This document shows, piece after piece, positions 4,603 through 37,457 of a stretch of 64,000 bases of DNA. Position 1 is the first letter of the stretch. Each line of letters starts with the position of its first letter. Both the position numbers and the translations under genes were made by a program. Below the pieces are notes generated by a model. That model made no database searches. It had not been told where the DNA came from and saw nothing but the letters and a program-made list of their open reading frames with translations. Source of the DNA: an uncultured Bacteroidales bacterium (GTDB taxonomy: Bacteria; Bacteroidota; Bacteroidia; Bacteroidales; UBA3824); the NCBI GenBank assembly GCA_937877455.1, contig CALFIU010000044.1, forward strand, positions 6,641 through 70,640, given 5' to 3'.

Positions 4603-5652
4603 ATGATAACGAGTTATAGTTTTCCAAGTGTTTTTGAACATAACAATTCAGATCTTTCGATGGTTTCGCAAGACCTTTTAAATGGCTTGCGTATATTCAT
4701 TGATGATGTACCATATATTGTTGGTAATCTTGCCCTTACTGAAGGTGGTTCGCCACACAGAACAGTTAATGCAGCCCCAACAGAAATAGATTATAAGATA
4801 CTTTTCAAGGCAGCATTGTTGCTTGCTTCGTATAAAAACAATAGACCTTTGACTATAACAACTGGTTTTCCATTGAGTACATATCAGGTTAATAAAAATA
4901 TTACACCTGAATTGCTTCAAAAAACTCATAAAATTGATTTTGACCTTTCTACTTTTACCAACAAAGGTCGTTCGGAAATGAAAGTTGACGTGGTTTCGGT
5001 TGAAATTATTCCCGAAATTCTTGGAAATATTGTAGCTTTGCGACAAGGAGAAACCAAGGCTTCTGGAAACTTTTTTGTGGTAAGTCTTGGATTTGGTACG
5101 TGTGAAGCTGTTCTCAGTACAGAAAATGGTATGGTTCAACGTACTGCTCTTAGCGTTCCGGGGTTGCAATATGCAATAAGTTTGTTTATCAAGGAATTGG
5201 GGTTGCAATATTCGCTTGGTCTTAAAAATGAACGTCAGATTGAGCAAGCGTTCATGAGCAATTTTATTATTCTAAATCGTAAAAAAATCGACATTCTTGA
5301 CATTCGTCGTAATGTTTTGAATATGTATTACAGAGATGTAATTTCTCCAAATTTCCGTCGTACTTTTACAGATGCCGATTTTACAAAAGCAAGTAAAATG
5401 TACATTACTGGTGGTGGTGCTCTTTATATGGAACTTATTGAAAATTTTTACAAAGAATTTGAAGGTATATTGAATATCGAAGTAGTTGAAAATCCATTGA
5501 CATTAACTTCGCTTGGATATTGTCTTAATTCTGTGAAGTCTAACGGCGGCGACACAAATACAGCCGTTGGTATAGATATGGGTAATTCTAATACAGTTAT
5601 TACTCAATACGAAGATGTAGATATTGATTCTGGTAGCCTTAGATTTAAATAA
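4603..5652 (+). CDS. ParM/ALP-type actin-fold protein, apparently circularly permuted (phosphate-1 motif at the C-terminus)
   Basis: The order of motifs matches ParM from the third strand onward: YSFPSVF, ITTGFPLSTY, VEIIPEILG, VVSLGFGTCE (phosphate-2 position), MYITGGGA (adenosine motif). There is no N-terminal DxG hairpin. The C-terminal residues read AVGIDMGNSNTVITQYED (nt 5563-5610). Confidence 0.7.
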   Translation: MITSYSFPSVFEHNNSDLSMVSQDLLNGLRIFIDDVPYIVGNLALTEGGSPHRTVNAAPTEIDYKILFKAALLLASYKNNRPLTITTGFPLSTYQVNKNITPELLQKTHKIDFDLSTFTNKGRSEMKVDVVSVEIIPEILGNIVALRQGETKASGNFFVVSLGFGTCEAVLSTENGMVQRTALSVPGLQYAISLFIKELGLQYSLGLKNERQIEQAFMSNFIILNRKKIDILDIRRNVLNMYYRDVISPNFRRTFTDADFTKASKMYITGGGALYMELIENFYKEFEGILNIEVVENPLTLTSLGYCLNSVKSNGGDTNTAVGIDMGNSNTVITQYEDVDIDSGSLRFK

Positions 5653-5681
5653 GGATAGTTTAAATTTTATTCATAATGCTG

Positions 5682-5717
5682 CGGAATGGAGAATGATAAG
5701 TTCTCTGTTCCGTTTTT
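5682..5717 (+). terminator. Imperfect hairpin plus T-run after the actin-like gene
   Basis: cggaatggagaa..ttctctgttccg (two central mismatches) followed by ttttt at 5713-5717. Confidence 0.45.
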
Positions 5718-5763
5718 GATTTTGGGTAATAAAAATTTTTTTTTATAAATTATAAAAAAATAT

Positions 5764-6435
5764 ATGAATTTTTTTGTTGGCGGCATTGATACCGATTGCG
5801 GAAAAACAGCGGTTACAGCTTTGATTTCAAAATATCTTTTGTCTATTGGATATACGGTAATTACTCAAAAACCAGTACAAACTGGATGCGAAAAAGTGGC
5901 AGATGACATAAAATTTCATCGCAAAACCGAAGGTAGAAATTTTTTAGAGGAAGATTATAATGGTTTGACTTGTAGATATTTATTTAAATATCCTGCATCT
6001 CCGCATCTTTCTGCTATGATGGAAAATGTTAAAATTGATCCTCAACTTATTTTTAATGATTCACAAGCTCTTCAATCAAAATATCAGGTTGTTTTAACAG
6101 AAGGAGCAGGTGGTCTTTATGTACCTCTTTATGGTGATTATTATACTATAGATTATATAAAAAATTATAACTTAAATCTTGTTTTGGTAACTTCATCAAA
6201 GCTTGGAAGTATCAATCATGCTTTGCTTAGTATTGAAGCATGTAAAGCGAGAGCAATAAATTTACATTCTGTAATTTACAATTATCTTCCAAATTGGGAC
6301 AAAGTTATATCGCCCGAAAGTGAAAAACGAATTGAACAGTTTGCGCATAAAATGTATCCAAATTCTAAGTTTTATGCTGTTCCTACTGTTGATAATTTTG
6401 AAAACAAAATAGTTGAATTTAAAGATTTTATATAA
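5764..6435 (+). CDS. bioD: Dethiobiotin synthetase
   Basis: N-terminal P-loop GGIDTDCGKTAV (family pattern GTDTxVGKT). Also LTEGAGGLYVPL. Length 223 aa. Confidence 0.85.
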   Translation: MNFFVGGIDTDCGKTAVTALISKYLLSIGYTVITQKPVQTGCEKVADDIKFHRKTEGRNFLEEDYNGLTCRYLFKYPASPHLSAMMENVKIDPQLIFNDSQALQSKYQVVLTEGAGGLYVPLYGDYYTIDYIKNYNLNLVLVTSSKLGSINHALLSIEACKARAINLHSVIYNYLPNWDKVISPESEKRIEQFAHKMYPNSKFYAVPTVDNFENKIVEFKDFI

Positions 6436-7579
6436 TAAAATCTTTGTTAATGATATTTAAATATACTAATATTTTTGCAACAAAAACGTTGTTTATATTT
6501 CCACTATTGTTTCTGTAATAATTTTCTAAAAAATATTGAGATTTTGAATTTAATATTACAGAAATTTTTTGAGCAAAGTTATCTGTTTTTATTGTAAATG
6601 GGCTGTTTAAAATAAAATTTAAGAATTTTTCAGAAAAATTTTGTTTCCATTTATCTTTATTTATTACAGAAAATTCGTGTGCGAAAAAAAAATTGGTTTC
6701 ATCGTTTTGTTTTTCAACATCAAATGAGTAACTTAAGTTTTCGAGTTGTTCTGAAGTTAAAATATTAAGATATTTTATTATTATTTTTTTGTTATCAATG
6801 CATATTTTTTCTGCTTTTTCTGGGGTTAATCTTTCGTTATATTCTTTTATTTTGTTTTTTGCAAAAATTGATATTTTTGTAGAAGTATCATTTTCGGCAA
6901 TATTTTCTATAAATTGAAGGTCATAATTGTCAGAAATTTTTATGTTTTGCAAAAAATCAATTTTATTTTTGATAGTTTCTTTATGCCAATTTTTTTCTAA
7001 GTATTGTAAGTAATTTTTTATGTTGGCCATTTTCATTGCTTTAAGCATTTTAATTTGGTTTTCGTGTGATGCTGTATCCCATTTTAAATCAGATATTTTC
7101 ATTACTTTTACCAACCATTTGCCTCTATTGCCAAGCAATTTCCAAATAAGCATTCGACTCATCAAAAATTTATGGTTATCTTGTAATAAAAATTTATTTA
7201 CAAACAATGGTATGTAGCTGTAAGGCAAAACTTGTTTCTTGTTTTCAAAAATTTTAAGCATGTGGTTTAATAGTATGCTTTTTTTTTCGTTCATAAGATA
7301 AACTAATCGTTCTGCGTTGTTGATGCTTATAAAATTTTGTTCTTCTTTTACTTCTGGTGGCAAATAATGGGTTTCGTTATATTTTTCTGGACAAAAACCA
7401 CTTTGCGCAGAACAAATATTTATTGCGAGTAGTTTTAAAAATTTATCTTCATTATCGCATTTTTGTGCTAAAATTTTATCTGTATATGGTTTTATCCATT
7501 TAGGAAACTCTATTTGTTCTATTTTTGTTGTTGATGTGCCAAGGGCAGCAATGTTAATTAGTTGTTCAATAGTTTTCAT
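6428..7579 (-). CDS. Hypothetical protein, DUF5691-like (recalled motifs only)
   Basis: 383 aa. N-terminal QLINIAALGTS and internal LLGNRGKWL resemble the ALLGT and LGxRGxWL motifs I recall for DUF5691. The ATG at 7579 overlaps the upstream gene's stop (7566) by 14 nt. The sequence is very AT-rich. Confidence 0.45.
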   Translation of the reverse strand: MKTIEQLINIAALGTSTTKIEQIEFPKWIKPYTDKILAQKCDNEDKFLKLLAINICSAQSGFCPEKYNETHYLPPEVKEEQNFISINNAERLVYLMNEKKSILLNHMLKIFENKKQVLPYSYIPLFVNKFLLQDNHKFLMSRMLIWKLLGNRGKWLVKVMKISDLKWDTASHENQIKMLKAMKMANIKNYLQYLEKNWHKETIKNKIDFLQNIKISDNYDLQFIENIAENDTSTKISIFAKNKIKEYNERLTPEKAEKICIDNKKIIIKYLNILTSEQLENLSYSFDVEKQNDETNFFFAHEFSVINKDKWKQNFSEKFLNFILNSPFTIKTDNFAQKISVILNSKSQYFLENYYRNNSGNINNVFVAKILVYLNIINKDFII

Positions 7580-9875: not shown

Positions 9876-10691
9876 TTAATATTGTTCTTGAGCATTTGGA
9901 AAATCGCCAGATTTTACGTCTTTTGAGTAGTTGTTAATAGCCGTTCTAATTTGTTCTGCTATGTTGGAATATTTTCGGAGAAATTTTGGTTTAAAACCTT
10001 CGTTAATTCCTAAAACATCTTGAAAAACAAGTACTTGACCATCGCAAACATTGCCGGCTCCTATTCCTATTGTTGGAATTTGTAGGCTTTGGGTAACTTT
10101 TTCGGCGAGTTGCGTTGGTATTTTTTCAAGTACAACGGAAAAGCAACCAAGTTTTTCTGCCAAGAGTGCATTTTGAAGAAGTATTTCTGCTTCTGCGTCT
10201 TCTTTTGCACGTAGTCCGTAGCCACCAAATTTGTTTATGCTTTGTGGTGTAAGTCCAAGATGTGCCATTATTGGTATTCCTGTGGCGAGTATTGCCTTGT
10301 ATGATTCTTCTATCTCTTTACCACCTTCTATTTTAACAGCTTGAGCACCTGTTCGTTTCATTATTTCCACGGCATTTTTCGATGCTTCACGTGCATCGCC
10401 TTGATATGTTCCAAATGGCATGTCAACTACCACCATGGCACGTTTACATCCGCGTACTACCGATGCAGCGTAGATAATCATTTCGTCGAGAGTTATTGGC
10501 AGTGTGGTTTCATAACCAGCCATTACGTTGGCAGCAGAATCGCCAACAAGTACTGCATCAATGCTTGTGGAGTCGAGTATTTTGGCCGAAGAATAGTCGT
10601 AGCAGGTTACCATCGCTATTTTTTGACCATTTTGTTTCATTTGTTTTAATGTGTTTACGGTTACTTTTATGGTTTCGTTGTATATTGACAT
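9876..10691 (-). CDS. panB: 3-methyl-2-oxobutanoate hydroxymethyltransferase
   Basis: 271 aa. KIAMVTCYDYSSAKI, LVGDSAANVMAGYETTLPITLDEMI, VVDMPFGTYQ, VKIEGG are typical PanB blocks. Confidence 0.9.
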   Translation of the reverse strand: MSIYNETIKVTVNTLKQMKQNGQKIAMVTCYDYSSAKILDSTSIDAVLVGDSAANVMAGYETTLPITLDEMIIYAASVVRGCKRAMVVVDMPFGTYQGDAREASKNAVEIMKRTGAQAVKIEGGKEIEESYKAILATGIPIMAHLGLTPQSINKFGGYGLRAKEDAEAEILLQNALLAEKLGCFSVVLEKIPTQLAEKVTQSLQIPTIGIGAGNVCDGQVLVFQDVLGINEGFKPKFLRKYSNIAEQIRTAINNYSKDVKSGDFPNAQEQY

Positions 10692-10742
10692 TTTTTTATT
10701 TATTTTGTTTAACAGAAAACCTTATTTTTTAACATTTATTTG

Positions 10743-10750
10743 CAAAAATA
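10743..10750 (-). promoter_or_regulatory. -7 box (TATTTTTG on minus strand) upstream of panB
   Basis: Plus-strand caaaaata is the reverse complement of TAnnTTTG. It lies ~52 nt upstream of ATG 10691. Confidence 0.4.
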
Positions 10751-10853
10751 ATGTTGTTTTGTATAAAATTATTTATCAATTTTGCATTGTACAAATGTAC
10801 AACAAAGTATGTTTTTTTCATAATATAAAGGTTTAGGTTAATAATTAGTTATG

Positions 10854-10879
10854 CTGCGGCAAGATTTTTCTTACCGCAG
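10854..10879 (-). terminator. Hairpin immediately after the wzc-like gene (the U-tract is only on the opposite strand)
   Basis: ctgcggcaag (10854-10863) pairs with cttaccgcag (10870-10879), with one mismatch. The T-run (10880-10886) is on the plus strand only. Confidence 0.35.
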
Positions 10880-10884
10880 TTTTT

Positions 10885-13350
10885 TTATTTTCTTTTCTTT
10901 CGTCTGAAAAATAACTTTTTGATAAAATGTTTTACTTTGTATTTCAGTGTGTTACGGTCTTCTGCACTTTCGTCTGAATAGTAGCCGCCATAATAACTTC
11001 CATAACCATAACCATAACCATAACCGTATTTTCCTCCGTAAGCATAAGACCCGCCTTTGCGTTTTATTCCGTTAAACACGATATTCATGTTGTGGAGATT
11101 GTTGCTTTTTAGGTCGTTGAATAGTTTGAGTACTGATTTTTGTGAGTATTTTTGACGTATTACAAATAGATAGCACGATGTATATTTGTCTAAAAGTATT
11201 GCGTCTGTTACAATGCCTACTGGTGCAGAGTCGATTATTATATAATCGTATTTATGTCGATTTGTTTCGATAAATTCTTGCATACGTGTAGAACCAATGA
11301 GTTCGGCTGGGTTGGGTGGTATTGGTCCTGGTAGTGCAATATCTAATTGAAAATCAAGTACGGTATTGTTTGCATCGCGATAATATTTTTGGGTAATTAT
11401 TATATCTTCTATTTCGCTATTATGACTTAGGTATGTACTCATTCCTAATGTGTTTGGCAATCCAAAGTATTCTTGAAGTCTTGGTTTTCTAAGGTCAAGT
11501 CCAACGAGTAAAACTTTTTGGTTGTTCATTGCTGTTATTAGAGCGAGATTAACAGCGTTGAATGTTTTTCCTTCGCCGCTCACTGTTGATGTCAAGACAA
11601 TAACTTTGTGTTTTTGGTCGGGATCTACATATTGTAGGTTTGTTCTTAATCCGCGATAAGCTTCGGCTATTGAGCTATTTTTTGCTGTTACAACAGGTGT
11701 TTTTGTATGATGGCGGTTTTCTCCTATTGTTCCTAAGGGCGAAAGTCCAGTTACGCGTTCAATTTCAGATACTTCTGATATTTTTGTGTCGAGGAGTATT
11801 AATAGTGCAATTAATACAGCAGGTACTATTAATCCAATTGTTATTGCTTTTGAAGTAGGAAATGCGCCAATGGGAGCAACGTATGAGCGAGTTATCCATG
11901 ATGCTTTGTCGAGAATTTCGGCATCTGGTTGGTTGGTGAATGCTGAAATTCCTGCTTCGTAACGGCGACGGAAAAGATAGTTGTATAGGTCGTTGTTTAG
12001 GTCGTATTTTTTTGATATTTTAAGTTTTTCGCGTTCAGTGGCAGGTAGTTCGGTTAATAGACCGCGCATTTGGTTCATCTTGCTTGTTATTTCTTTTTTG
12101 CGCTTATCAAGCATATTACTTGCTAAATCTATGTATATCAGTAATTTGCGAATTATTTCCCGTGTTTGATAGTCGTTAAATTGGTATGGTTTTACATTTT
12201 TGCCGTCGCGTACCGAAAAGTCTAAAACGTTTCGTTCCGACATTTGGGCGTTTATTTGATTGAGGTATCCGTTTAGCCGTTCATCGGTTATGCCTGCCAA
12301 TGATGGTGGAACTATTGCTGTAAGGTCGGGACGTAGATTTTCGTCTTCGCTGTTGTAGAGTTCCATTTGCTCTTTTATGTATTGATAGTAACTTTCTTTT
12401 AGTGCTATTTGTTGTAATTCTGTGCGTCCTTCTTTTAGAGTTCCAGTTACTTCGCTCATTCCAGGACGGAATATTGCATCTACCGAATTTGAGAATTTTA
12501 GTAAATCGGCATCGCCTACAGCAAGGCTGTCGCTTAATGTTACGAGTAGTGTGTCGATAAATTGTATTGTTTTTACAACTATTCTATTTTTTTCTTCGAG
12601 TGAGTAGGCTAAGTAAGCTTTTGTTATAGCGTTTACGTAATCGTCGCATTTTTCTGGTACTTCGCCTACTATTGCTACTCTTACTATTGTTCCGTTTTTG
12701 TTTTTTTTGGTTACTCTTAAGTTGGCAGAGTATCTTGGTACAAGGCTTTCTAATGTTTCTGTTTTAAAAAAATATATTTGCCCTTTTTTGCCAACGCATG
12801 CCATAGTGGTATCGTATGGCATGATGCGAAATTTAAATTGTTCTGTTTCTGCCCAATTGCCAACCGAAGCAGTTATGTATTTTTCTGAGTTTCCTATGCT
12901 AATTTTAAATTGGTCGTCGCCAGTAAATGTAAGAAATATTTTTTGGTTGTATATTTGGGGGTGGTTTTTGTCGTATTCTACACGAAACGGTGATGTATTT
13001 TTATAAAGTTCGCGGTCGGCTCCATAGTGTCCAGCACGGTAGTATGAGGTTTCAAAATCCAGTTCCGACAATGCAATTCTTGCAAGATTGTAGGATTTAA
13101 ACATGTCTATTTCGTTTTGGACATCAAATGATGGCAATATTGTACCGAGCCCCGTAAAATTTTGTGGGCTATCTTTCTTTTTTAACATTACTGTTGCATT
13201 GCTACACGATTGAGGTATCTGATAGCGATTTTGGTAATGTGCGTATGCGAGTGAAATTATTACGCCAAAGGCAAGCATCCACCATTTTGGGAGTACTTTT
13301 CTTAGATAATATTTATAGTCTATTGGTTGGTCTTCTTTGTCTTGTTCCAT
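10885..13350 (-). CDS. Polysaccharide co-polymerase / BY-kinase (Wzc/GumC-type chain-length determinant tyrosine kinase)
   Basis: 821 aa. N-terminal TM plus a Wzz-like periplasmic region, then a second TM (ITIGLIVPAVLIALLILL). Walker A TSTVSGEGKTF and Walker B YIIIDSAP. C-terminal tyrosine cluster GGSYAYGGKYGYGYGYGYGSYYGGYY. Confidence 0.8.
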   Translation of the reverse strand: MEQDKEDQPIDYKYYLRKVLPKWWMLAFGVIISLAYAHYQNRYQIPQSCSNATVMLKKKDSPQNFTGLGTILPSFDVQNEIDMFKSYNLARIALSELDFETSYYRAGHYGADRELYKNTSPFRVEYDKNHPQIYNQKIFLTFTGDDQFKISIGNSEKYITASVGNWAETEQFKFRIMPYDTTMACVGKKGQIYFFKTETLESLVPRYSANLRVTKKNKNGTIVRVAIVGEVPEKCDDYVNAITKAYLAYSLEEKNRIVVKTIQFIDTLLVTLSDSLAVGDADLLKFSNSVDAIFRPGMSEVTGTLKEGRTELQQIALKESYYQYIKEQMELYNSEDENLRPDLTAIVPPSLAGITDERLNGYLNQINAQMSERNVLDFSVRDGKNVKPYQFNDYQTREIIRKLLIYIDLASNMLDKRKKEITSKMNQMRGLLTELPATEREKLKISKKYDLNNDLYNYLFRRRYEAGISAFTNQPDAEILDKASWITRSYVAPIGAFPTSKAITIGLIVPAVLIALLILLDTKISEVSEIERVTGLSPLGTIGENRHHTKTPVVTAKNSSIAEAYRGLRTNLQYVDPDQKHKVIVLTSTVSGEGKTFNAVNLALITAMNNQKVLLVGLDLRKPRLQEYFGLPNTLGMSTYLSHNSEIEDIIITQKYYRDANNTVLDFQLDIALPGPIPPNPAELIGSTRMQEFIETNRHKYDYIIIDSAPVGIVTDAILLDKYTSCYLFVIRQKYSQKSVLKLFNDLKSNNLHNMNIVFNGIKRKGGSYAYGGKYGYGYGYGYGSYYGGYYSDESAEDRNTLKYKVKHFIKKLFFRRKKRK
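11002..11025. repeat. Hexanucleotide microsatellite (ATAACC)x4 encoding the GY repeats of the Wzc tyrosine cluster
   Basis: Four perfect tandem ataacc units read directly at 11002-11025; they encode (GY)n on the minus strand. Confidence 0.9.
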
Positions 13351-13363
13351 TGTTAAGCGTTTT

Positions 13364-14107
13364 TTACTTGACGTAACGTTCTATGAGATAATAAAGCGAC
13401 ATACCAGATGTAAATATTGTTAACACGGCAGAGTAGTCGTTGAGTGCGCGTTTGAAAGCTGTAAGTCTTCTTGGTTCAACGTATATCATATCGCCGGGTT
13501 GTAGATAAAATTGTGTTGCTTCCATTAACTTTCGGTCTGTAATGTCAACTTTATATAGCAAATACCCTTTGACGGTTTTTCGTATTATTATTATTTTTCG
13601 TCGTTTGGCATCGTACGTTACTCCTCCGTGTCTTGCTACGGCTTCGAGAATACTTACTTTGGTGTCGGAAAAATTTATCATTCCGTTTTGGACACCGAGA
13701 AAATAGACATTAAAATTCATTAGCCTTGTAGAAACTACTGCATCTATGAGTTTTTCGTCAACCATTTTTTGAATATCTTGCCTTATTTCTTTGATTGTTT
13801 TGTCAAGTACAAAAATATCTCCAAATATTGGAACGTGTATGTAACCTGTGTCGCTAACTTCAAATCCCGAATGTGTTACTTCTTTGCCTTGATCGCTTAC
13901 AAACAAACTATTAATCTGTGAGTTGGTGGTTTTTAGTGCAATGCCTATTATGTCGCCAACTTTTATGTGATAGTCTTCTACAGTGTCGATGTATTCGTGC
14001 GGTAGTTGTGTTTTGTCATCAACAATGTAGCGTATGTTGCGATAACACGAACTGAACATTAGCACGGTTAATACAAAAAAAAGCGTTTTTAAAATTCTTA
14101 ATTTCAT
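13364..14107 (-). CDS. Polysaccharide export outer-membrane protein (Wza/BexD/CtrA family)
   Basis: 247 aa. Lipoprotein-type signal LMFSSC. Poly_export-like HIKVGDIIGI..VSDTGYIHVPIFGDIFV..KTIKEIRQDI. SLBB-like LQPGDMIYVEPR. Confidence 0.75.
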   Translation of the reverse strand: MKLRILKTLFFVLTVLMFSSCYRNIRYIVDDKTQLPHEYIDTVEDYHIKVGDIIGIALKTTNSQINSLFVSDQGKEVTHSGFEVSDTGYIHVPIFGDIFVLDKTIKEIRQDIQKMVDEKLIDAVVSTRLMNFNVYFLGVQNGMINFSDTKVSILEAVARHGGVTYDAKRRKIIIIRKTVKGYLLYKVDITDRKLMEATQFYLQPGDMIYVEPRRLTAFKRALNDYSAVLTIFTSGMSLYYLIERYVK

Positions 14108-14154
14108 TACAATGCTTAATAAATTATCAAATTAATTGTCGTTTATTGTGTTTG

Positions 14155-15345
14155 TCATTGAATTTTATTTTGTTGTTTTTTTTTGCGTCGTCGCATTATT
14201 ATGGTGTTATGTAGTGCTATTATTGGCCATCCTAAAATTGGAAGGTACATTGCCAATAATATAGGGCGTTTGGCTATGGTTTTTAGGCATTTGTTTAATG
14301 TTAACTTTAAACTTTCTTGTCCTTTTTCTTGCGAATAATTTACGTCAAAGTATGTCATTGTACATGGCCAAAACGCAGGAAAATATCTAAAAAAATTTTT
14401 TCTATTTTTCCACATGGCTTTTATCAACCCTTTTATGTCGTAAAATTTATCTCCATATTTTTCTACGGCTTCGTTTAGATTTCGTTGCATAATTTGACGT
14501 ATTTTTTCGCCAATATCTTTCAAGTCTTTTTGTGTTATGTCCTCATAAGGTTTGTCTATCATTTCGTATGCCTTGATGCGTTTACCAAGTACAAATGTTA
14601 ATCTTGAGGGCAATGATATGTAGAAAATCCACGGTTGAAAAATTGCAAGAAATATTATTGGTCCAAATGGAAAAAATGGTAGCCCAAAATTTCTCCCTTT
14701 GCGGGTTATTTTTTTTATGTTGTAGGCTAATGGATTGTTATATTCTCCGTTAACTGTTAGTATTGGTATTATGTCGGTTTTGTATCGTATGCTCATTCGC
14801 AAAAAGGATGTTTTGAATGGTTGTAACTTATACCTTTTGTCAAATCCTTTTCCAATACCTTCGAGTCCTTCAGGAAAAATTAGTATGTTGCTTAAGTTTA
14901 GTTTCATGCCCGTTTCAAAATTTAGAAATGTGGCGTTTATGCAACCTGCTTTCCACCATAGTCCATCTATCATAAATGGACACATGTATGGAAATTTTGT
15001 GAGTAGTGGGGATATAAGTGCGCGAATGTTATCTATTGTGTTTTGTCCGCGTTCTATTATTTTGCTTATAAATGCTATTGCATCCCATGGAAAAGCCATT
15101 CCACTATGATTTGCAGCGAATATTAATGGCGAATCGTTTTCTGTGCGGGTAGGGAAGGGTTCTAAGTTGATAAATCTGGCTCTAAACCAAACTTCGCGTA
15201 TTGGGTTGAGAATAACTTTGTTGAACACATCGGCGTATGACAAATTGTATAAATTTGAATACACTGCGCGGTTTTTCTCTATTTCCTCGTCGGTAAGCAC
15301 CAACCTATTGCGATATTGACTTATAACCGTTTCTGTGGTTTGCAT
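14155..15345 (-). CDS. PlsC-type (lysophospholipid) acyltransferase family membrane protein
   Basis: Motifs FAANHSGMAFPWD and ILIFPEGLEGIGKGF (FPEG block), with C-terminal TM helices. I moved the start to ATG 15345 (MQTTETV..) because the track's upstream extension translates the promoter region. Confidence 0.55.
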   Translation of the reverse strand: MQTTETVISQYRNRLVLTDEEIEKNRAVYSNLYNLSYADVFNKVILNPIREVWFRARFINLEPFPTRTENDSPLIFAANHSGMAFPWDAIAFISKIIERGQNTIDNIRALISPLLTKFPYMCPFMIDGLWWKAGCINATFLNFETGMKLNLSNILIFPEGLEGIGKGFDKRYKLQPFKTSFLRMSIRYKTDIIPILTVNGEYNNPLAYNIKKITRKGRNFGLPFFPFGPIIFLAIFQPWIFYISLPSRLTFVLGKRIKAYEMIDKPYEDITQKDLKDIGEKIRQIMQRNLNEAVEKYGDKFYDIKGLIKAMWKNRKNFFRYFPAFWPCTMTYFDVNYSQEKGQESLKLTLNKCLKTIAKRPILLAMYLPILGWPIIALHNTIIMRRRKKKQQNKIQ

Positions 15346-33810: not shown

Positions 33811-35025
33811 ATGGTAAAAAAAGTGAAAATTTTAGTAATTAATTGTGGTTCGTCGTCCTTAAAATATCAACTTTTTGATATGGACAAAAACGAAGTTTTA
33901 GCAAAGGGTGGCGTTGAAAAAATTGGTCTTCAAGATTCTTTTTTAAAACATCAAAAAGGTGAGGGTGAAAAAACTAAGATAGAAAAACCAATGAATGATC
34001 ATAAAGAAGCTATTGAGTTGGTGCTTAGTACTTTAACCGATCAAAAACTTGGTGTTATATCCTCACTTAGCGACATTGATGCAGCAGGACATAGAGTTTT
34101 GCATGGTGGCGAATTTTTTAAGGAATCTGTTTTGATAAACGACGAAGTTATTGCAAAAATTGAAGAAATAGCTCCACTTGGTCCGTTACATCAAATGGCC
34201 AACCTCAAAGGAATACGTGCAATAAAGGCTTTACTTCCAACTTTGCCACAAGTTGCTGTTTTTGATACAGCATTTCATCAAACAATTCCAGATTATGCGT
34301 ATTTGTATGCTATTCCTTATGAATTGTATGAAAAATATCATATTCGTCGTTATGGTTTCCATGGTTCGAGCCACAGATATGTATCAAAACGTGCTTGCGA
34401 AATTCTTGGACTTGACTATAATAAAACCAAAATAATTACATGCCATATTGGAAATGGAGCTTCATTGGCTGCCATAGAAAACGGTAAAGTTGTTGATACA
34501 TCAATGGGATTGACTCCTTGTGAGGGTGTAATGATGGGAACTCGTTGTGGAGATATTGATCCTGCTGTTTTCCCATATCTTTTCTCTAACAATGCACTTG
34601 ACCCTAAGGATATGGATAATTTTATTAATAAAAAATCAGGTGTACTTGGTGTTAGTGGTGTTTCGTCAGACATGCGCGATGTTGAGGAAGCCGCTTTTGT
34701 TAGAAAAGAAAAACGTGCTGCCTTATCTCTTAAAATGTATGACTATCGTATAAAGAAATACGTTGGAGCTTACATGGCAGCAATGAATGGTTGTGATGTG
34801 CTTGTTTTCACTGGTGGAATAGGAGAGAAGGGCGATACAACACGTCGTGGTGTTGCAATGCATCTTGAAAATCTTGGTATTGAGTTTGATGATACAATTA
34901 ACACAGGACTTAGGGATAAAGAGATGGTTATTTCAAAACCAACGTCAAAAGTAAAGGTTATTGTTGTTCCCACCAACGAAGAACTCGTTATTGCTCAAGA
35001 TACACTTGCGCTTACAAAAAAATAG
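33811..35025 (+). CDS. ackA: Acetate kinase
   Basis: ILVINCGSSSLKYQLF, AAGHRVLHGG, FDTAFHQTIP, YGFHGSSH, FTGGIGE. Confidence 0.96.
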   Translation: MVKKVKILVINCGSSSLKYQLFDMDKNEVLAKGGVEKIGLQDSFLKHQKGEGEKTKIEKPMNDHKEAIELVLSTLTDQKLGVISSLSDIDAAGHRVLHGGEFFKESVLINDEVIAKIEEIAPLGPLHQMANLKGIRAIKALLPTLPQVAVFDTAFHQTIPDYAYLYAIPYELYEKYHIRRYGFHGSSHRYVSKRACEILGLDYNKTKIITCHIGNGASLAAIENGKVVDTSMGLTPCEGVMMGTRCGDIDPAVFPYLFSNNALDPKDMDNFINKKSGVLGVSGVSSDMRDVEEAAFVRKEKRAALSLKMYDYRIKKYVGAYMAAMNGCDVLVFTGGIGEKGDTTRRGVAMHLENLGIEFDDTINTGLRDKEMVISKPTSKVKVIVVPTNEELVIAQDTLALTKK

Positions 35026-35044
35026 ATTAAAGCTTTTTAGTTAC

Positions 35045-35076
35045 AAAAAACCATGGATTTGTCCATGGTTTTTTTG
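35045..35076 (+). terminator. Rho-independent terminator of pta-ackA
   Basis: aaccatgga (35049-35057), loop tttg, tccatggtt (35062-35070), then a T-run to 35076. An A6 run sits upstream. Confidence 0.85.
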
Positions 35077-35295
35077 TATTTTTTGTGTAGATAATTTTGT
35101 AACATTTTTTATTTTGTTGGATTAATTGTTTAGTTAAAACGGCGATTATCCTATAAATATAGTTATTTATTACGTTAATAACAACACAAATAATTTTTCT
35201 AAGATTTTATTGGTAAAATTTGATAATAAAGCATGACAAAATTTTAAATAAAAACTTTTTTAGTAGTTGTAATAATAAAAATATATAAAAAAGCC

Positions 35296-35341
35296 GTTGT
35301 GATTTGCTTTCAAATTTTATAACTTTGCAGGGCAAATATAG
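35296..35341 (+). CRISPR. Solitary type II-C-like CRISPR repeat (no second repeat, no spacer)
   Basis: GTTGTGATTTGCTTTCAAATTTTATAACTTTGCAGGGCAAATATAG. Positions 2-21 are perfectly complementary to the tracrRNA 5' end (35607-35626). The start resembles the 47-nt Bacteroidetes II-C repeats I remember (GTTGTGATTTGCTTTCAAATT...). It contains an internal TAACTTTG -7 box (35320-35327). The 3' boundary is approximate. Confidence 0.75.
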
Positions 35342-35354
35342 TTTTTTTTTACTA

Positions 35355-35531
35355 CTATGGGCTGTTTTTGGATGTTTTGCCGCTGTTGAAATTGCTCAAA
35401 GCATCTTCACCCATAGGTATGATTCTACTCCCTGCTGCACTAATACCACACGGGGCGTTGTTGTCGTCAACATTCACCACCGCCCATCCTATAGAGTTGG
35501 TTCCTAAGTCAAGTCCTAATATCTTTTTCAT
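35355..35531 (-). pseudogene. cas9: cas9 5' remnant (first ~55 codons, RuvC-I motif only)
   Basis: From ATG 35531: MKKILGLDLGTNSIGWAVVNVDDNNAPCGISAAGSRIIPMGEDALSNFNSGKTSKNSP*. GLDLGTNSIGWAV is the Cas9 RuvC-I signature. The stop is at 35355-35357, only 13 nt from the solitary repeat. Confidence 0.85.
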
Positions 35532-35569
35532 TGTCGGAAAATTTTTTCCCAAAAATAAGAATAAAAAAT

Positions 35570-35600
35570 TTTGTAGTACAAATTAATTTGCATATATTTG
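35570..35600 (+). promoter_or_regulatory. tracrRNA promoter: -33 TTTG and -7 TATATTTG
   Basis: TTTG at 35570-35573, a 19-nt spacer, then TATATTTG at 35593-35600. The predicted start site falls at the first bases of the anti-repeat. The 12-bp palindrome CAAATTAATTTG (35579-35590) lies between the divergent cas9 and tracrRNA starts. Confidence 0.6.
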
Positions 35601-35606
35601 CACTAC

Positions 35607-35692
35607 AATTTGAAAGCAAATCACAATAAGGATTATTCCGTTGTGAAAACATTAGGTTTGCGCCTCGTCCTTCAACGGGGCGCACTTTTTTT
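35607..35692 (+). ncRNA. tracrRNA (type II-C-like), sequence modules intact
   Basis: Anti-repeat AATTTGAAAGCAAATCACAA. Nexus-like ATAAGGATTATTCCGTTGTGAAAAC (compare S. pyogenes UAAGGCUAGUCCGUUAUCAAC). Terminator stem TGCGCC (35659-35664) / GGCGCA (35679-35684) plus T7 (35686-35692). Confidence 0.8.
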
Positions 35693-35750
35693 ATAAAAAA
35701 AACACCTAAAAAATGGTATTACGTATATCCAATACCATTTTTTAGGTGTT
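35691..35750 (-). terminator. Long perfect hairpin terminating the lipoprotein/ABC operon
   Basis: 20-bp arms AACACCTAAAAAATGGTATT (35701-35720) and AATACCATTTTTTAGGTGTT (35731-35750) with a 10-nt loop. On the minus strand it is followed by a T-run (complement of A6 at 35695-35700). Confidence 0.75.
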
Positions 35751-35771
35751 AAAAAAGATAAGAGTTCCTTT

Positions 35772-37457
35772 CTATTTCAACGTAATTGTTGTTCCGATAT
35801 TTACGTATTTATCAGAACCAAACGAAACATTGAATACATCGCCAGAGGTGGTTGTGCCTTTCAACGTGAGTTTGCCGTTTGAATACGAATAATCGTCGGC
35901 AGTAAGCAGTTGTGCTTGTTTTCCAGAGCCTTTCTTTACTGTTAATAATGCAAAATTAGCGTCTTCAGGAGCGTTGTTGATGGTCAATGTTATTTCAACA
36001 TCTTCACCAGCGGTAGTCTCTGGCGCAGAAACGGTGGCTGTAGTCCAGTTCTTAACAAAAACGTTCAAGTCAACTGAAATATTAACAGTGTCTTTGAGAA
36101 TGTAAGTGATGTTGGAGATTGTTTTACCTTCCAAGTCTGCTGTGTGCTTGTAAGCACGTGTGCAACCATGCGGCTCGGTAAAATCTTTAATACAGAATGT
36201 AAATTCTGCTGGTTTCAACCAAAGGTTGTTGAGAAACTGCAAGCCGTATTTTGAGCCGTCGGTGGTGGTAAGGATAGCACCTTGCAAATTGTATTTCGTA
36301 ACGTCTTTAAGTCCGTCAAGCGAAATAACATAGTTGCCCCATTTTGCATCAAAGCCAGATGTTAAAATTGCTGTGGCTGTTTGAGTTGCAACGGTTGAAT
36401 TCCATTTGCCAAAACTGCCGTCTTCATTGTATTCTTTGTAATCAACAGGAGTGTTTTCCAAAACGGTAAAACGTGATTTGTCTTCAAGCGAATTGTACAT
36501 ATTCGCTTCAATTGCAACGTTAACTCCTTTTATACCATAAATTTTTGATTCAGTACCATTGATTTCATAATTAGCGTTTGCAAACGAAGTGCATTTTGAG
36601 TTGGTTGCCGAACTTACTGCGTCAACACCAAGATCTTCGAGAGTTTGTGCTGTTTTGCCAAGTTCTGCGGCGTAAAATTCTGCCCAAGTCATGTCTGTGG
36701 TTGCATATACGTATGTTGGTTGGTAGTCTGCAAGGTTTTCGTCGCAGAAAAGTTTTATGCAGGCTTTTCTGTTTGCTTCTGTCTCGTTTTCGAGCATTGC
36801 AGCGGCAAGCCAATATGCGTATTGACCTTTGAAAAACTCTGGGAAAGATGCCGAGTCGTTTCCATAACGAAACTCAAGATGGTAGGTTGTGCCGGGGGTG
36901 TCGCCCATAAAGAAGAAATACTTAAATTGATCTTCGTTGCCATCGTCTGATTTTAAGTAGTAACAACCATCTTTTTCTCCAGTCTGTGTGTATTCATGGC
37001 TGAAAACGGTTTGAGAATTAGCGTCAAGACCCGTGATTTTCTTGCCGTCAATTACAAATTTTGATACGCCACCGATAAAACCACAATTGAATTGGTAACC
37101 GTTTGGAAATCCGTTTGTACCGTCGCCATATTTCTCTTGAGCTTCTGCGCCGTAGATTGTGCCAGTAAATGAGGTTTTGAGCATTTCGTACGTGGCTTTG
37201 CCTGAGTATGAGTTGCCAGTGTACTTGGCGCAACATTCTACCCAATAATCGTCGTATTTTGATGCGCAGAAACCATTTTCTGTAAACAATTCAACGAATG
37301 TTCCGCTGATACTCTTCTGGAAGTCAGTGGCATCGGAAGTTGTAGCTGTTTTTTCTTCGGTTTTCTTGTTGTCGTCATCGTCGTCGCACGATACGTAAAC
37401 CAAAGATGTTGATGCTGCAAGTATAATTGCAGCGGCTAATTTTGTGTATTTGTTCAT
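35772..37457 (-). CDS. Surface lipoprotein, possible ZinT/YodA-like lipocalin region at the N-terminus
   Basis: 561 aa. Lipobox LVYVSC followed by DDDDD. The segment FKYFFFMGDTPGTTYHLEFRYGNDSASFPEFFKGQYAYW resembles the ZinT core as I recall it. It is the last gene of the ABC operon. Confidence 0.5.
   Translation of the reverse strand: MNKYTKLAAAIILAASTSLVYVSCDDDDDNKKTEEKTATTSDATDFQKSISGTFVELFTENGFCASKYDDYWVECCAKYTGNSYSGKATYEMLKTSFTGTIYGAEAQEKYGDGTNGFPNGYQFNCGFIGGVSKFVIDGKKITGLDANSQTVFSHEYTQTGEKDGCYYLKSDDGNEDQFKYFFFMGDTPGTTYHLEFRYGNDSASFPEFFKGQYAYWLAAAMLENETEANRKACIKLFCDENLADYQPTYVYATTDMTWAEFYAAELGKTAQTLEDLGVDAVSSATNSKCTSFANANYEINGTESKIYGIKGVNVAIEANMYNSLEDKSRFTVLENTPVDYKEYNEDGSFGKWNSTVATQTATAILTSGFDAKWGNYVISLDGLKDVTKYNLQGAILTTTDGSKYGLQFLNNLWLKPAEFTFCIKDFTEPHGCTRAYKHTADLEGKTISNITYILKDTVNISVDLNVFVKNWTTATVSAPETTAGEDVEITLTINNAPEDANFALLTVKKGSGKQAQLLTADDYSYSNGKLTLKGTTTSGDVFNVSFGSDKYVNIGTTITLK

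Follow-up and report, generated by a model that had tools for sequence, protein, structure and literature searches.

What remains of a CRISPR-Cas9 system in the short interval between ackA and a putative lipoprotein gene of this Bacteroidales bacterium, and how was the rest of it lost? In what follows, the window is the whole stretch of DNA analysed, 64,000 nucleotides (64 kb) in length. Three cognate pieces lie at positions 35296–35692: a tracrRNA gene, a cas9 promoter followed by the first 57 codons of its gene, and a partial repeat. The segment is very probably the relic, no longer functional, of a type II-C CRISPR-Cas9 locus of the Bacteroidota. It is bracketed on one side by the ackA terminator and on the other by that of the lipoprotein gene. 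The features of the region are as follows.

33811–35084, plus strand: ackA (PF00871) with its terminator, a hairpin at 35045–35074 and a T-tail (terminator scan)
35296–35332, plus strand: repeat remnant, the first 37 nt of a type II-C repeat of the 47-nt family (identity to L104, family consensus)
35333–35360, no strand assigned: junction segment CAAATATAGTTTTTTTTTACTACTATGG, between the repeat edge at 35332 and the cas9 edge at 35361
35361–35531, minus strand: cas9 5′ fragment, codons 1–57, with the RuvC-I motif ILGLDLGTNSIGWAVV (tblastn, BLASTP, TIGR01865, alignment)
35532–35606, no strand assigned: divergent promoter region (motifs read from the sequence)
35557–35550, minus strand: candidate cas9 −7 box TATTTTTG, also present in L086/L087 (alignment)
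35593–35600, plus strand: candidate tracrRNA −7 box TATATTTG, at the same place in L006, L019 and L086
35607–35692, plus strand: apparently intact tracrRNA gene (repeat complementarity, homology, fold, terminator)
35607–35626, plus strand: anti-repeat AATTTGAAAGCAAATCACAA, a perfect 20-nt complement of 35297–35316
about 35621–35646, plus strand: nexus-like hairpin (predicted fold)
35659–35684, plus strand: tracrRNA terminator hairpin of 10 bp, then a T-run to 35692 (terminator scan)
35749–35702, minus strand: terminator hairpin of the lipoprotein gene (terminator scan)
35772–37457, minus strand: gene for a 561-aa putative lipoprotein, the last gene of an ABC-transporter operon (ORF list)

The tracrRNA gene and the cas9 fragment

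A tracrRNA-like gene had been proposed in the initial annotation from its perfect 20-nt complementarity to the repeat, and the proposal was borne out by matches of 92–97% lying divergently upstream of cas9 in other genomes. A scan of species-representative genomes with the cas9 stub returned at least 80 Bacteroidota cas9 loci, the best showing 70–72% identity among the matches listed; in most of the listed loci the tracrRNA core was 92–100% identical to that of the window and was located on the opposite strand, 50–150 nt upstream of cas9. The element upstream of cas9 in L006, for example, is 97% identical to the window tracrRNA over 72 nt. A near-invariant core, CACAATAAGGATTATTCCGTTGTGAAAAC, is common to at least 77 loci; downstream of it are a GC-rich hairpin that is lineage-specific and a T-run. 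The repeat and anti-repeat (inverted repeat I1, 23 nt, 96%) make up the only such pair in the 64 kb, and none of 100 dinucleotide shuffles gave two matches. Since the window anti-repeat pairs perfectly with its own repeat, whereas that of L086 differs at several positions, the tracrRNA and the repeat of the window are cognate.

The predicted fold of the window tracrRNA has an energy of −27.3 kcal/mol (z −4.5). The nexus pairs are invariant in 22 homologs, and the nexus hence has the support of conservation and none from covariation. An Rfam scan of 34500–36500 gave nothing near the gathering score; RF02348 scored the window tracrRNA at 18 bits against a gathering score of 70, indicating that the model does not recognise this lineage. 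The tracrRNA assignment consequently rests on homology to the cas9-adjacent elements.

The sequence TAnnTTTG, a −7 promoter motif of the Bacteroidetes type (PMC10309648), was observed 6–8 nt upstream of the anti-repeat in the window, L006, L019 and L086, a position that agrees with a tracrRNA 5′ end near 35607. A second inverted repeat, I11 (35325–35340 versus 35593–35608), was considered as an additional repeat:anti-repeat pairing and was rejected, being the −7 box of the tracrRNA, which is kept in L006, L019 and L086 whatever the 3′ ends of their repeats. Both promoters look intact and may still drive transcription of the tracrRNA and of the 58-codon stub. Just past the tracrRNA terminator and downstream of the lipoprotein gene, positions 35701–35750 form an inverted repeat of 20 perfectly matched bp around a 10-nt loop, with a T-run on either side, which is likely a bidirectional terminator.

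The stub ORF runs on the minus strand from the ATG at 35531 to a stop at 35355–35357; its 58 codons encode MKKILGLDLGTNSIGWAVVNVDDNNAPCGISAAGSRIIPMGEDALSNFNSGKTSKNSP, with codon 58 and the stop (35355–35360) falling in the junction segment. This peptide had been read as the RuvC-I motif and N-terminus of Cas9, and both the reading and its coordinates and peptide proved exact. P0142, a protein of 1520 aa that is itself a Cas9 according to TIGR01865 (407 bits, cutoff 100), matched stub residues 1–57 with 94.7% identity in tblastn (E 4e-29) and at 54 of 57 positions in BLASTP, and the 90%-identity cluster of the stub includes this full-length protein. The stub also matched NCBIfam TIGR01865 at profile positions 2–37 (E 2e-9). 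When it was aligned with Cas9 N-termini, as it readily could be, GLDLGTNSIGW, R36, I37 and P39 were found to be invariant in the 16 sequences.

P0142 is encoded on contigs L086 and L087, the DNA of which is ~90% identical to the window from the tracrRNA terminator through ...GGCAAAACATCCAAAAACAGC and then diverges abruptly. L086 shows no relationship to the window upstream of the tracrRNA terminator; thus the homologous module ends there and the genomic context of L086 differs. On the cas9 side the edge of homology is at 35361 by tblastn, and allowing a 1-nt indel CCATA extends cas9 to 35356. The fragment is an N-terminal remnant as first described, but homology gives it 57 codons and not the ~55 proposed.

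The repeat remnant and the junction

The 46-nt string GTTGTGATTTGCTTTCAAATTTTATAACTTTGCAGGGCAAATATAG at 35296–35341 (plus strand) had been taken for a Bacteroidetes II-C repeat. Comparison with CRISPR repeat families matched it to a 46–47-nt Bacteroidota family, and the identification held for the 37 nt at 35296–35332, but not for the last 9 nt, CAAATATAG, which are non-canonical. The closest repeat in a metagenome scan was that of the L104 array, GTTGTGATTTGCTTTCAAATTTTATAACTTTGCAGGG followed by TCATAAACAAC (GTTGTGATTTGCTTTCAAATTTTATAACTTTGCAGGGTCATAAACAAC), which is identical to the window element over those 37 nt; L104 encodes an NMENI-type (type II) Cas1 and a Cas2 and has, besides the array, a leader-like flank. 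Exact matches to the 5′ 21 nt occur in several Bacteroides and Chitinophagaceae repeats and in the repeats of L018, L023, L038 and L058. Arrays were present in 49 of the 80 listed loci, and their repeats are 46–47 nt long, start with GTTGTGA(A/T)TTGCTTTCAAA and end with ACA(A/G/T)C. About 43 of these 49 arrays lie on the strand opposite cas9, the same orientation that had been described, correctly, for the repeat of the window. An exact 24-mer of the repeat 3′ half had no match in the JGI metagenomes, and a looser repeat pattern was found there on four contigs, none of them with the trailer that the window has at 35085–35295.

Positions 35320–35327 of the remnant carry a −7 motif, TAACTTTG (TAnnTTTG), which is also found in the repeats of L006, L019, L102 and L104. 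Promoters embedded in the repeats have been described for II-C arrays (PMC10309648), and the presence of TAACTTTG in these repeats fits such a crRNA promoter, predicted here from the motif.

Two further observations concern the arrays of the relatives. Contigs L101, L102 and L103 (JGI Ga0247608/10/11) contain a sister family of repeats that agrees in the 5′ 34 nt but has a repeat length of only 36 nt and a period of 66–67 nt; in effect, this is the 47-nt repeat ending directly behind its embedded TAACTTTGCA promoter motif. A conserved flank of ~60 nt, TCAATATGGGTTAT..ATTGAC..ATTACAG, was seen between cas2 and the first cas-proximal repeat in L006 (reverse strand), L019 and L104; it resembles a leader, in keeping with the addition of new spacers at the cas-proximal end.

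Ordinary degeneracy of a terminal repeat was examined as the source of the odd 3′ end of the window element and was rejected. Across 33 arrays (listed loci L006–L085) the cas-proximal repeat was always intact, and the cas-distal terminal repeat had lost its 5′ part and kept its 3′ part in 13–14 of the 33, so that intact arrays decay at the cas-distal 5′ part. The pattern in the window is the opposite, so that it is more likely that a breakpoint fell within the repeat or that a further event took place.

Between the two edges of homology lie 23–28 nt, the range reflecting the last 5 nt (35356–35360), which are possibly cas9-derived with a 1-nt indel. The segment 35333–35360 had no significant match in the compared loci or elsewhere in the window. 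Searched against the leader-like flanks proximal to cas2 it again gave no significant match (29–79% of shuffles were as good), and searched as a spacer remnant it had no significant match in IMG/VR viral contigs. The array-side breakpoint probably lies inside the repeat.

If the ancestral layout was that of the relatives, it would have comprised a divergent tracrRNA gene, cas9, cas1, cas2, a leader-like flank of ~130 nt and, on the opposite strand, an array built of 47-nt repeats. Everything from cas9 codon 58 to a point within one repeat would then have been removed by deletion, a loss of at least ~5.9 kb plus the array, leaving behind the tracrRNA gene, 57 codons of cas9 with their promoter, the 23–28-nt junction segment and the first 37 nt of the repeat. 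The route may have been one deletion, with a breakpoint inside the repeat and filler nucleotides, or two or more successive deletions.

A single deletion with its junction between 35342 and ~35375 had been suggested in the initial annotation. The cas9 edge, at 35361 or 35356, does fall in this bracket, but the repeat edge at 35332 does not; because the repeat is canonical only to 35332 and 23–28 nt separate the edges, one clean deletion that left the whole outermost repeat is not established. Decay in several steps, whether by two or more deletions or by a deletion tied to mobile-element activity at the locus, is a reading that we take seriously while leaning slightly against it. It draws on a repeat that is canonical only to nt 37, a pattern found in no terminal repeat of the 33 intact arrays, and on the lack of a matching source for the 23–28 nt between the homology edges. 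In some strains, described below, the cas9 start codon is also the exact site of a structural variant, the cas9 stub of contig L107 is followed by an integrase-bearing element, and IS insertions have been reported in Flavobacterium II-C loci (PMC10309648). Nevertheless, the same data are covered by one event if a lone deletion broke within the repeat and filler nucleotides were added, and the junction in the window bears no IS or integrase sequence.

Missing components, genomic flanks and strain variants

The claim that cas1, cas2, a second repeat and any spacer are gone was upheld across the 64-kb window by an array scan together with tblastn. Queries with Cas1 and Cas2 of L006 and L087 gave no match better than E 0.15 in the 64 kb. 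Full-length Cas9, with its bridge helix, HNH and RuvC-II/III, is likewise missing, since only residues 1–57 were matched when P0142 and the L006 Cas9 were searched against the window by tblastn. No second repeat or tandem array with a period of ~66–77 nt was detected in the 64 kb, and the gap from ackA to the repeat (35026–35295) held no degenerate repeats beyond chance, 40% of shuffles scoring equally high. The reference for these losses was L006, in which cas9 (10001–14659) is followed by cas1, cas2 and an array from 16119; this locus is complete, as evidenced by cas9-cas1-cas2 ORFs, an array with a 77-nt period and a tracrRNA match upstream of cas9. Relative to it, at least ~5.9 kb plus the array are absent from the window. 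The putative assignment to subtype II-C rests on relatives, the csn2/cas4 region being deleted in the window: L006, L105 and L108, compared for csn2 and cas4, contain cas9-cas1-cas2 only, and the Cas1 of L104 is NMENI-type. Lacking nuclease, adaptation genes and spacer, the locus would be unable to give immunity.

An intact CRISPR-Cas locus between ackA and the lipoprotein operon was not found in relatives. Genomes with an AckA at least 90% identical have peptidase genes after ackA and no CRISPR there, and genomes with a lipoprotein (P0138) at least 90% identical have other genes downstream of it, again with no CRISPR there. The ABC-transporter operon context of the lipoprotein gene was seen in L088 and L091. 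None of these AckA or lipoprotein relatives (at least 90%) has ackA adjacent to the lipoprotein gene, so that the absence of CRISPR there does not speak against an ancestral locus; the ancestral state that we infer for this exact site is drawn from non-syntenic relatives.

The same arrangement was recovered in seven other contigs from at least five samples, about 99.2–99.96% identical overall to the window, with zero differences in 35296–35360. The sequence is present in GCA_900089695.1 and in bioreactor assemblies of PRJEB12797. The seven contigs carry names of the NODE_, k127 and Logan types in addition to an NCBI record, and thus come from different assemblers. CRISPR arrays often break or collapse in short-read assemblies, and one contig, L004, breaks off near the cas9 start, at the point of variation; that the relic is an artefact, in the form of a collapsed array or a wrong contig join, can nonetheless be practically dismissed. 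The repeat-to-cas9 junction recurs base for base in the seven contigs from at least five samples and different assemblers, and a repeat would not become joined to cas9 codon 57 through the collapse of an array. This recurrence indicates a genuine junction that predates the divergence of these strains, and shows the collapsed state to be fixed in a strain population.

Among the strains the stub varies by S46N, G34E, two synonymous changes and a 12-nt in-frame deletion (P0002), which is consistent with drift. The repeat shows no changes, and the tracrRNA one in L005 and one in L091/L092; at an overall divergence of only 0.15–0.85% among the strains, so few changes say little about constraint. 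Four SNPs within 6 nt distinguish positions 35603–35608 from L091/L092, at the predicted tracrRNA start and first anti-repeat bases, and the remaining tracrRNA is identical.

A larger difference was observed in two contigs whose AckA is identical to that of the window. From exactly cas9 codon 3 (window ~35527 onward), L001 (11716–11768) and L002 (11021–11145) carry unrelated DNA, which contains the perfect hairpin TATACTTTA-CA-TAAAGTATA and had no match in the window or in IMG/VR. These contigs end ~50 and ~125 nt past the switch, and L004, assembled from the run that also gave L002, stops right at it. Together, the codon-3 switch and the end of L004 indicate that part of the population, in samples ERZ841272 and ERZ922530, has a structural variant on the side of the tracrRNA, which probably arose by rearrangement or by insertion of a mobile element.

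These data also bear on whether the remnant has been kept because it works, that is, whether an orphan tracrRNA, alone or with the repeat as a scaRNA-like element or mini-array, serves a Cas9 elsewhere in the genome in immunity or gene regulation. We regard this as very improbable. The promoter motif, anti-repeat, nexus and terminator of the tracrRNA all look intact, the repeat and junction are invariant in the seven strain contigs, and standalone repeat-like regulators do exist in some type II loci (bioRxiv 10.1101/2023.03.03.530964). Strain divergence is, however, too low for that invariance to mean constraint, and in L001 and L002 the tracrRNA-side region upstream of cas9 codon 3 has been replaced as far as the contigs reach. 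No Cas9 is present in the 64-kb window, and the lone repeat lacks a canonical 3′ end, a preceding repeat-embedded promoter and a spacer, so that no normal crRNA could be made from it. A scaRNA-like unit would work with a resident Cas effector and bear a spacer-like guide with partial complementarity to a promoter; the 64 kb contained no Cas9 and neither an upstream repeat nor a repeat-embedded promoter from which a spacer-repeat transcript could start. Retention of the tracrRNA for a Cas9-independent or trans role (e.g., with a second type II system elsewhere), the repeat remnant acting as its pairing partner or decoy, is likewise very improbable. A non-functional relic is the reading that we retain.

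Relation to known type II loci

The relic is most closely comparable with Bacteroidota II-C loci with repeats of 46–47 nt (Flavobacterium, Bacteroides; L006, L019, and L086/L087 with L104). It shares with them the tracrRNA core and its divergent position, the Cas9 N-terminus, the 5′ 37 nt of the repeat, the placement of the repeat on the opposite strand and the TAnnTTTG motif inside it. Unlike these loci, the window has no cas9 past codon 57, no cas1 or cas2, no leader-like flank, no spacers and none of the other repeats of an array.

Decay of such loci at the level of strains has been reported in Flavobacterium psychrophilum, in which the Cas9 of the II-C locus is truncated or absent in some strains and IS insertions occur, including an IS982 between tracrRNA and cas9 (PMC10309648). 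Structural change between tracrRNA and cas9 is thus common to F. psychrophilum (IS982) and to the L001/L002 variant, whereas the deletion in the window took nearly everything, left a relic of 397 nt and has no IS visible at its junction.

Other short ORFs encoding a Cas9 N-terminus on long contigs were mostly frameshift-split cas9 genes with cas1-cas2 intact, such as the pseudogenes of L105 and L108; in these the rest of cas9, cas1 and cas2 is retained, but in the window it is gone. L107 (GCA_025996695.1, Bacteroidia bacterium), which also has such an ORF, encodes at 4804–6606 a 65-aa Cas9 stub and, immediately after it, HTH_17, an integrase of phage type that is split, DUF3987 and helicases; the arrangement resembles an integrative element that has either entered cas9 or taken its place beyond ~codon 60.

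The combination of a solitary repeat-like sequence and a tracrRNA also recalls scaRNA and tracr-L, standalone repeat-like regulators in type II loci (Shmakov et al., 2023, bioRxiv 10.1101/2023.03.03.530964). Those elements, in contrast, have a resident Cas9, an intact locus and a spacer-like guide, and the window has neither a Cas9 nor a spacer-repeat unit that could be transcribed.

The relic is an ordinary case of a known process and opens no new question, since it has already been reported that strains of Bacteroidetes can lose the Cas9 of their II-C loci or keep it in truncated form. For annotation, the 58-codon ORF is to be entered as a cas9 pseudogene fragment and the tracrRNA as an orphan, and the strain population is to be scored as being without this CRISPR-Cas9 system. 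The relic provides an example, resolved to the base, of the loss of a type II-C locus, and illustrates that small parts with promoters of their own, here the tracrRNA, the 5′ end of cas9 and one repeat, can outlast that loss.
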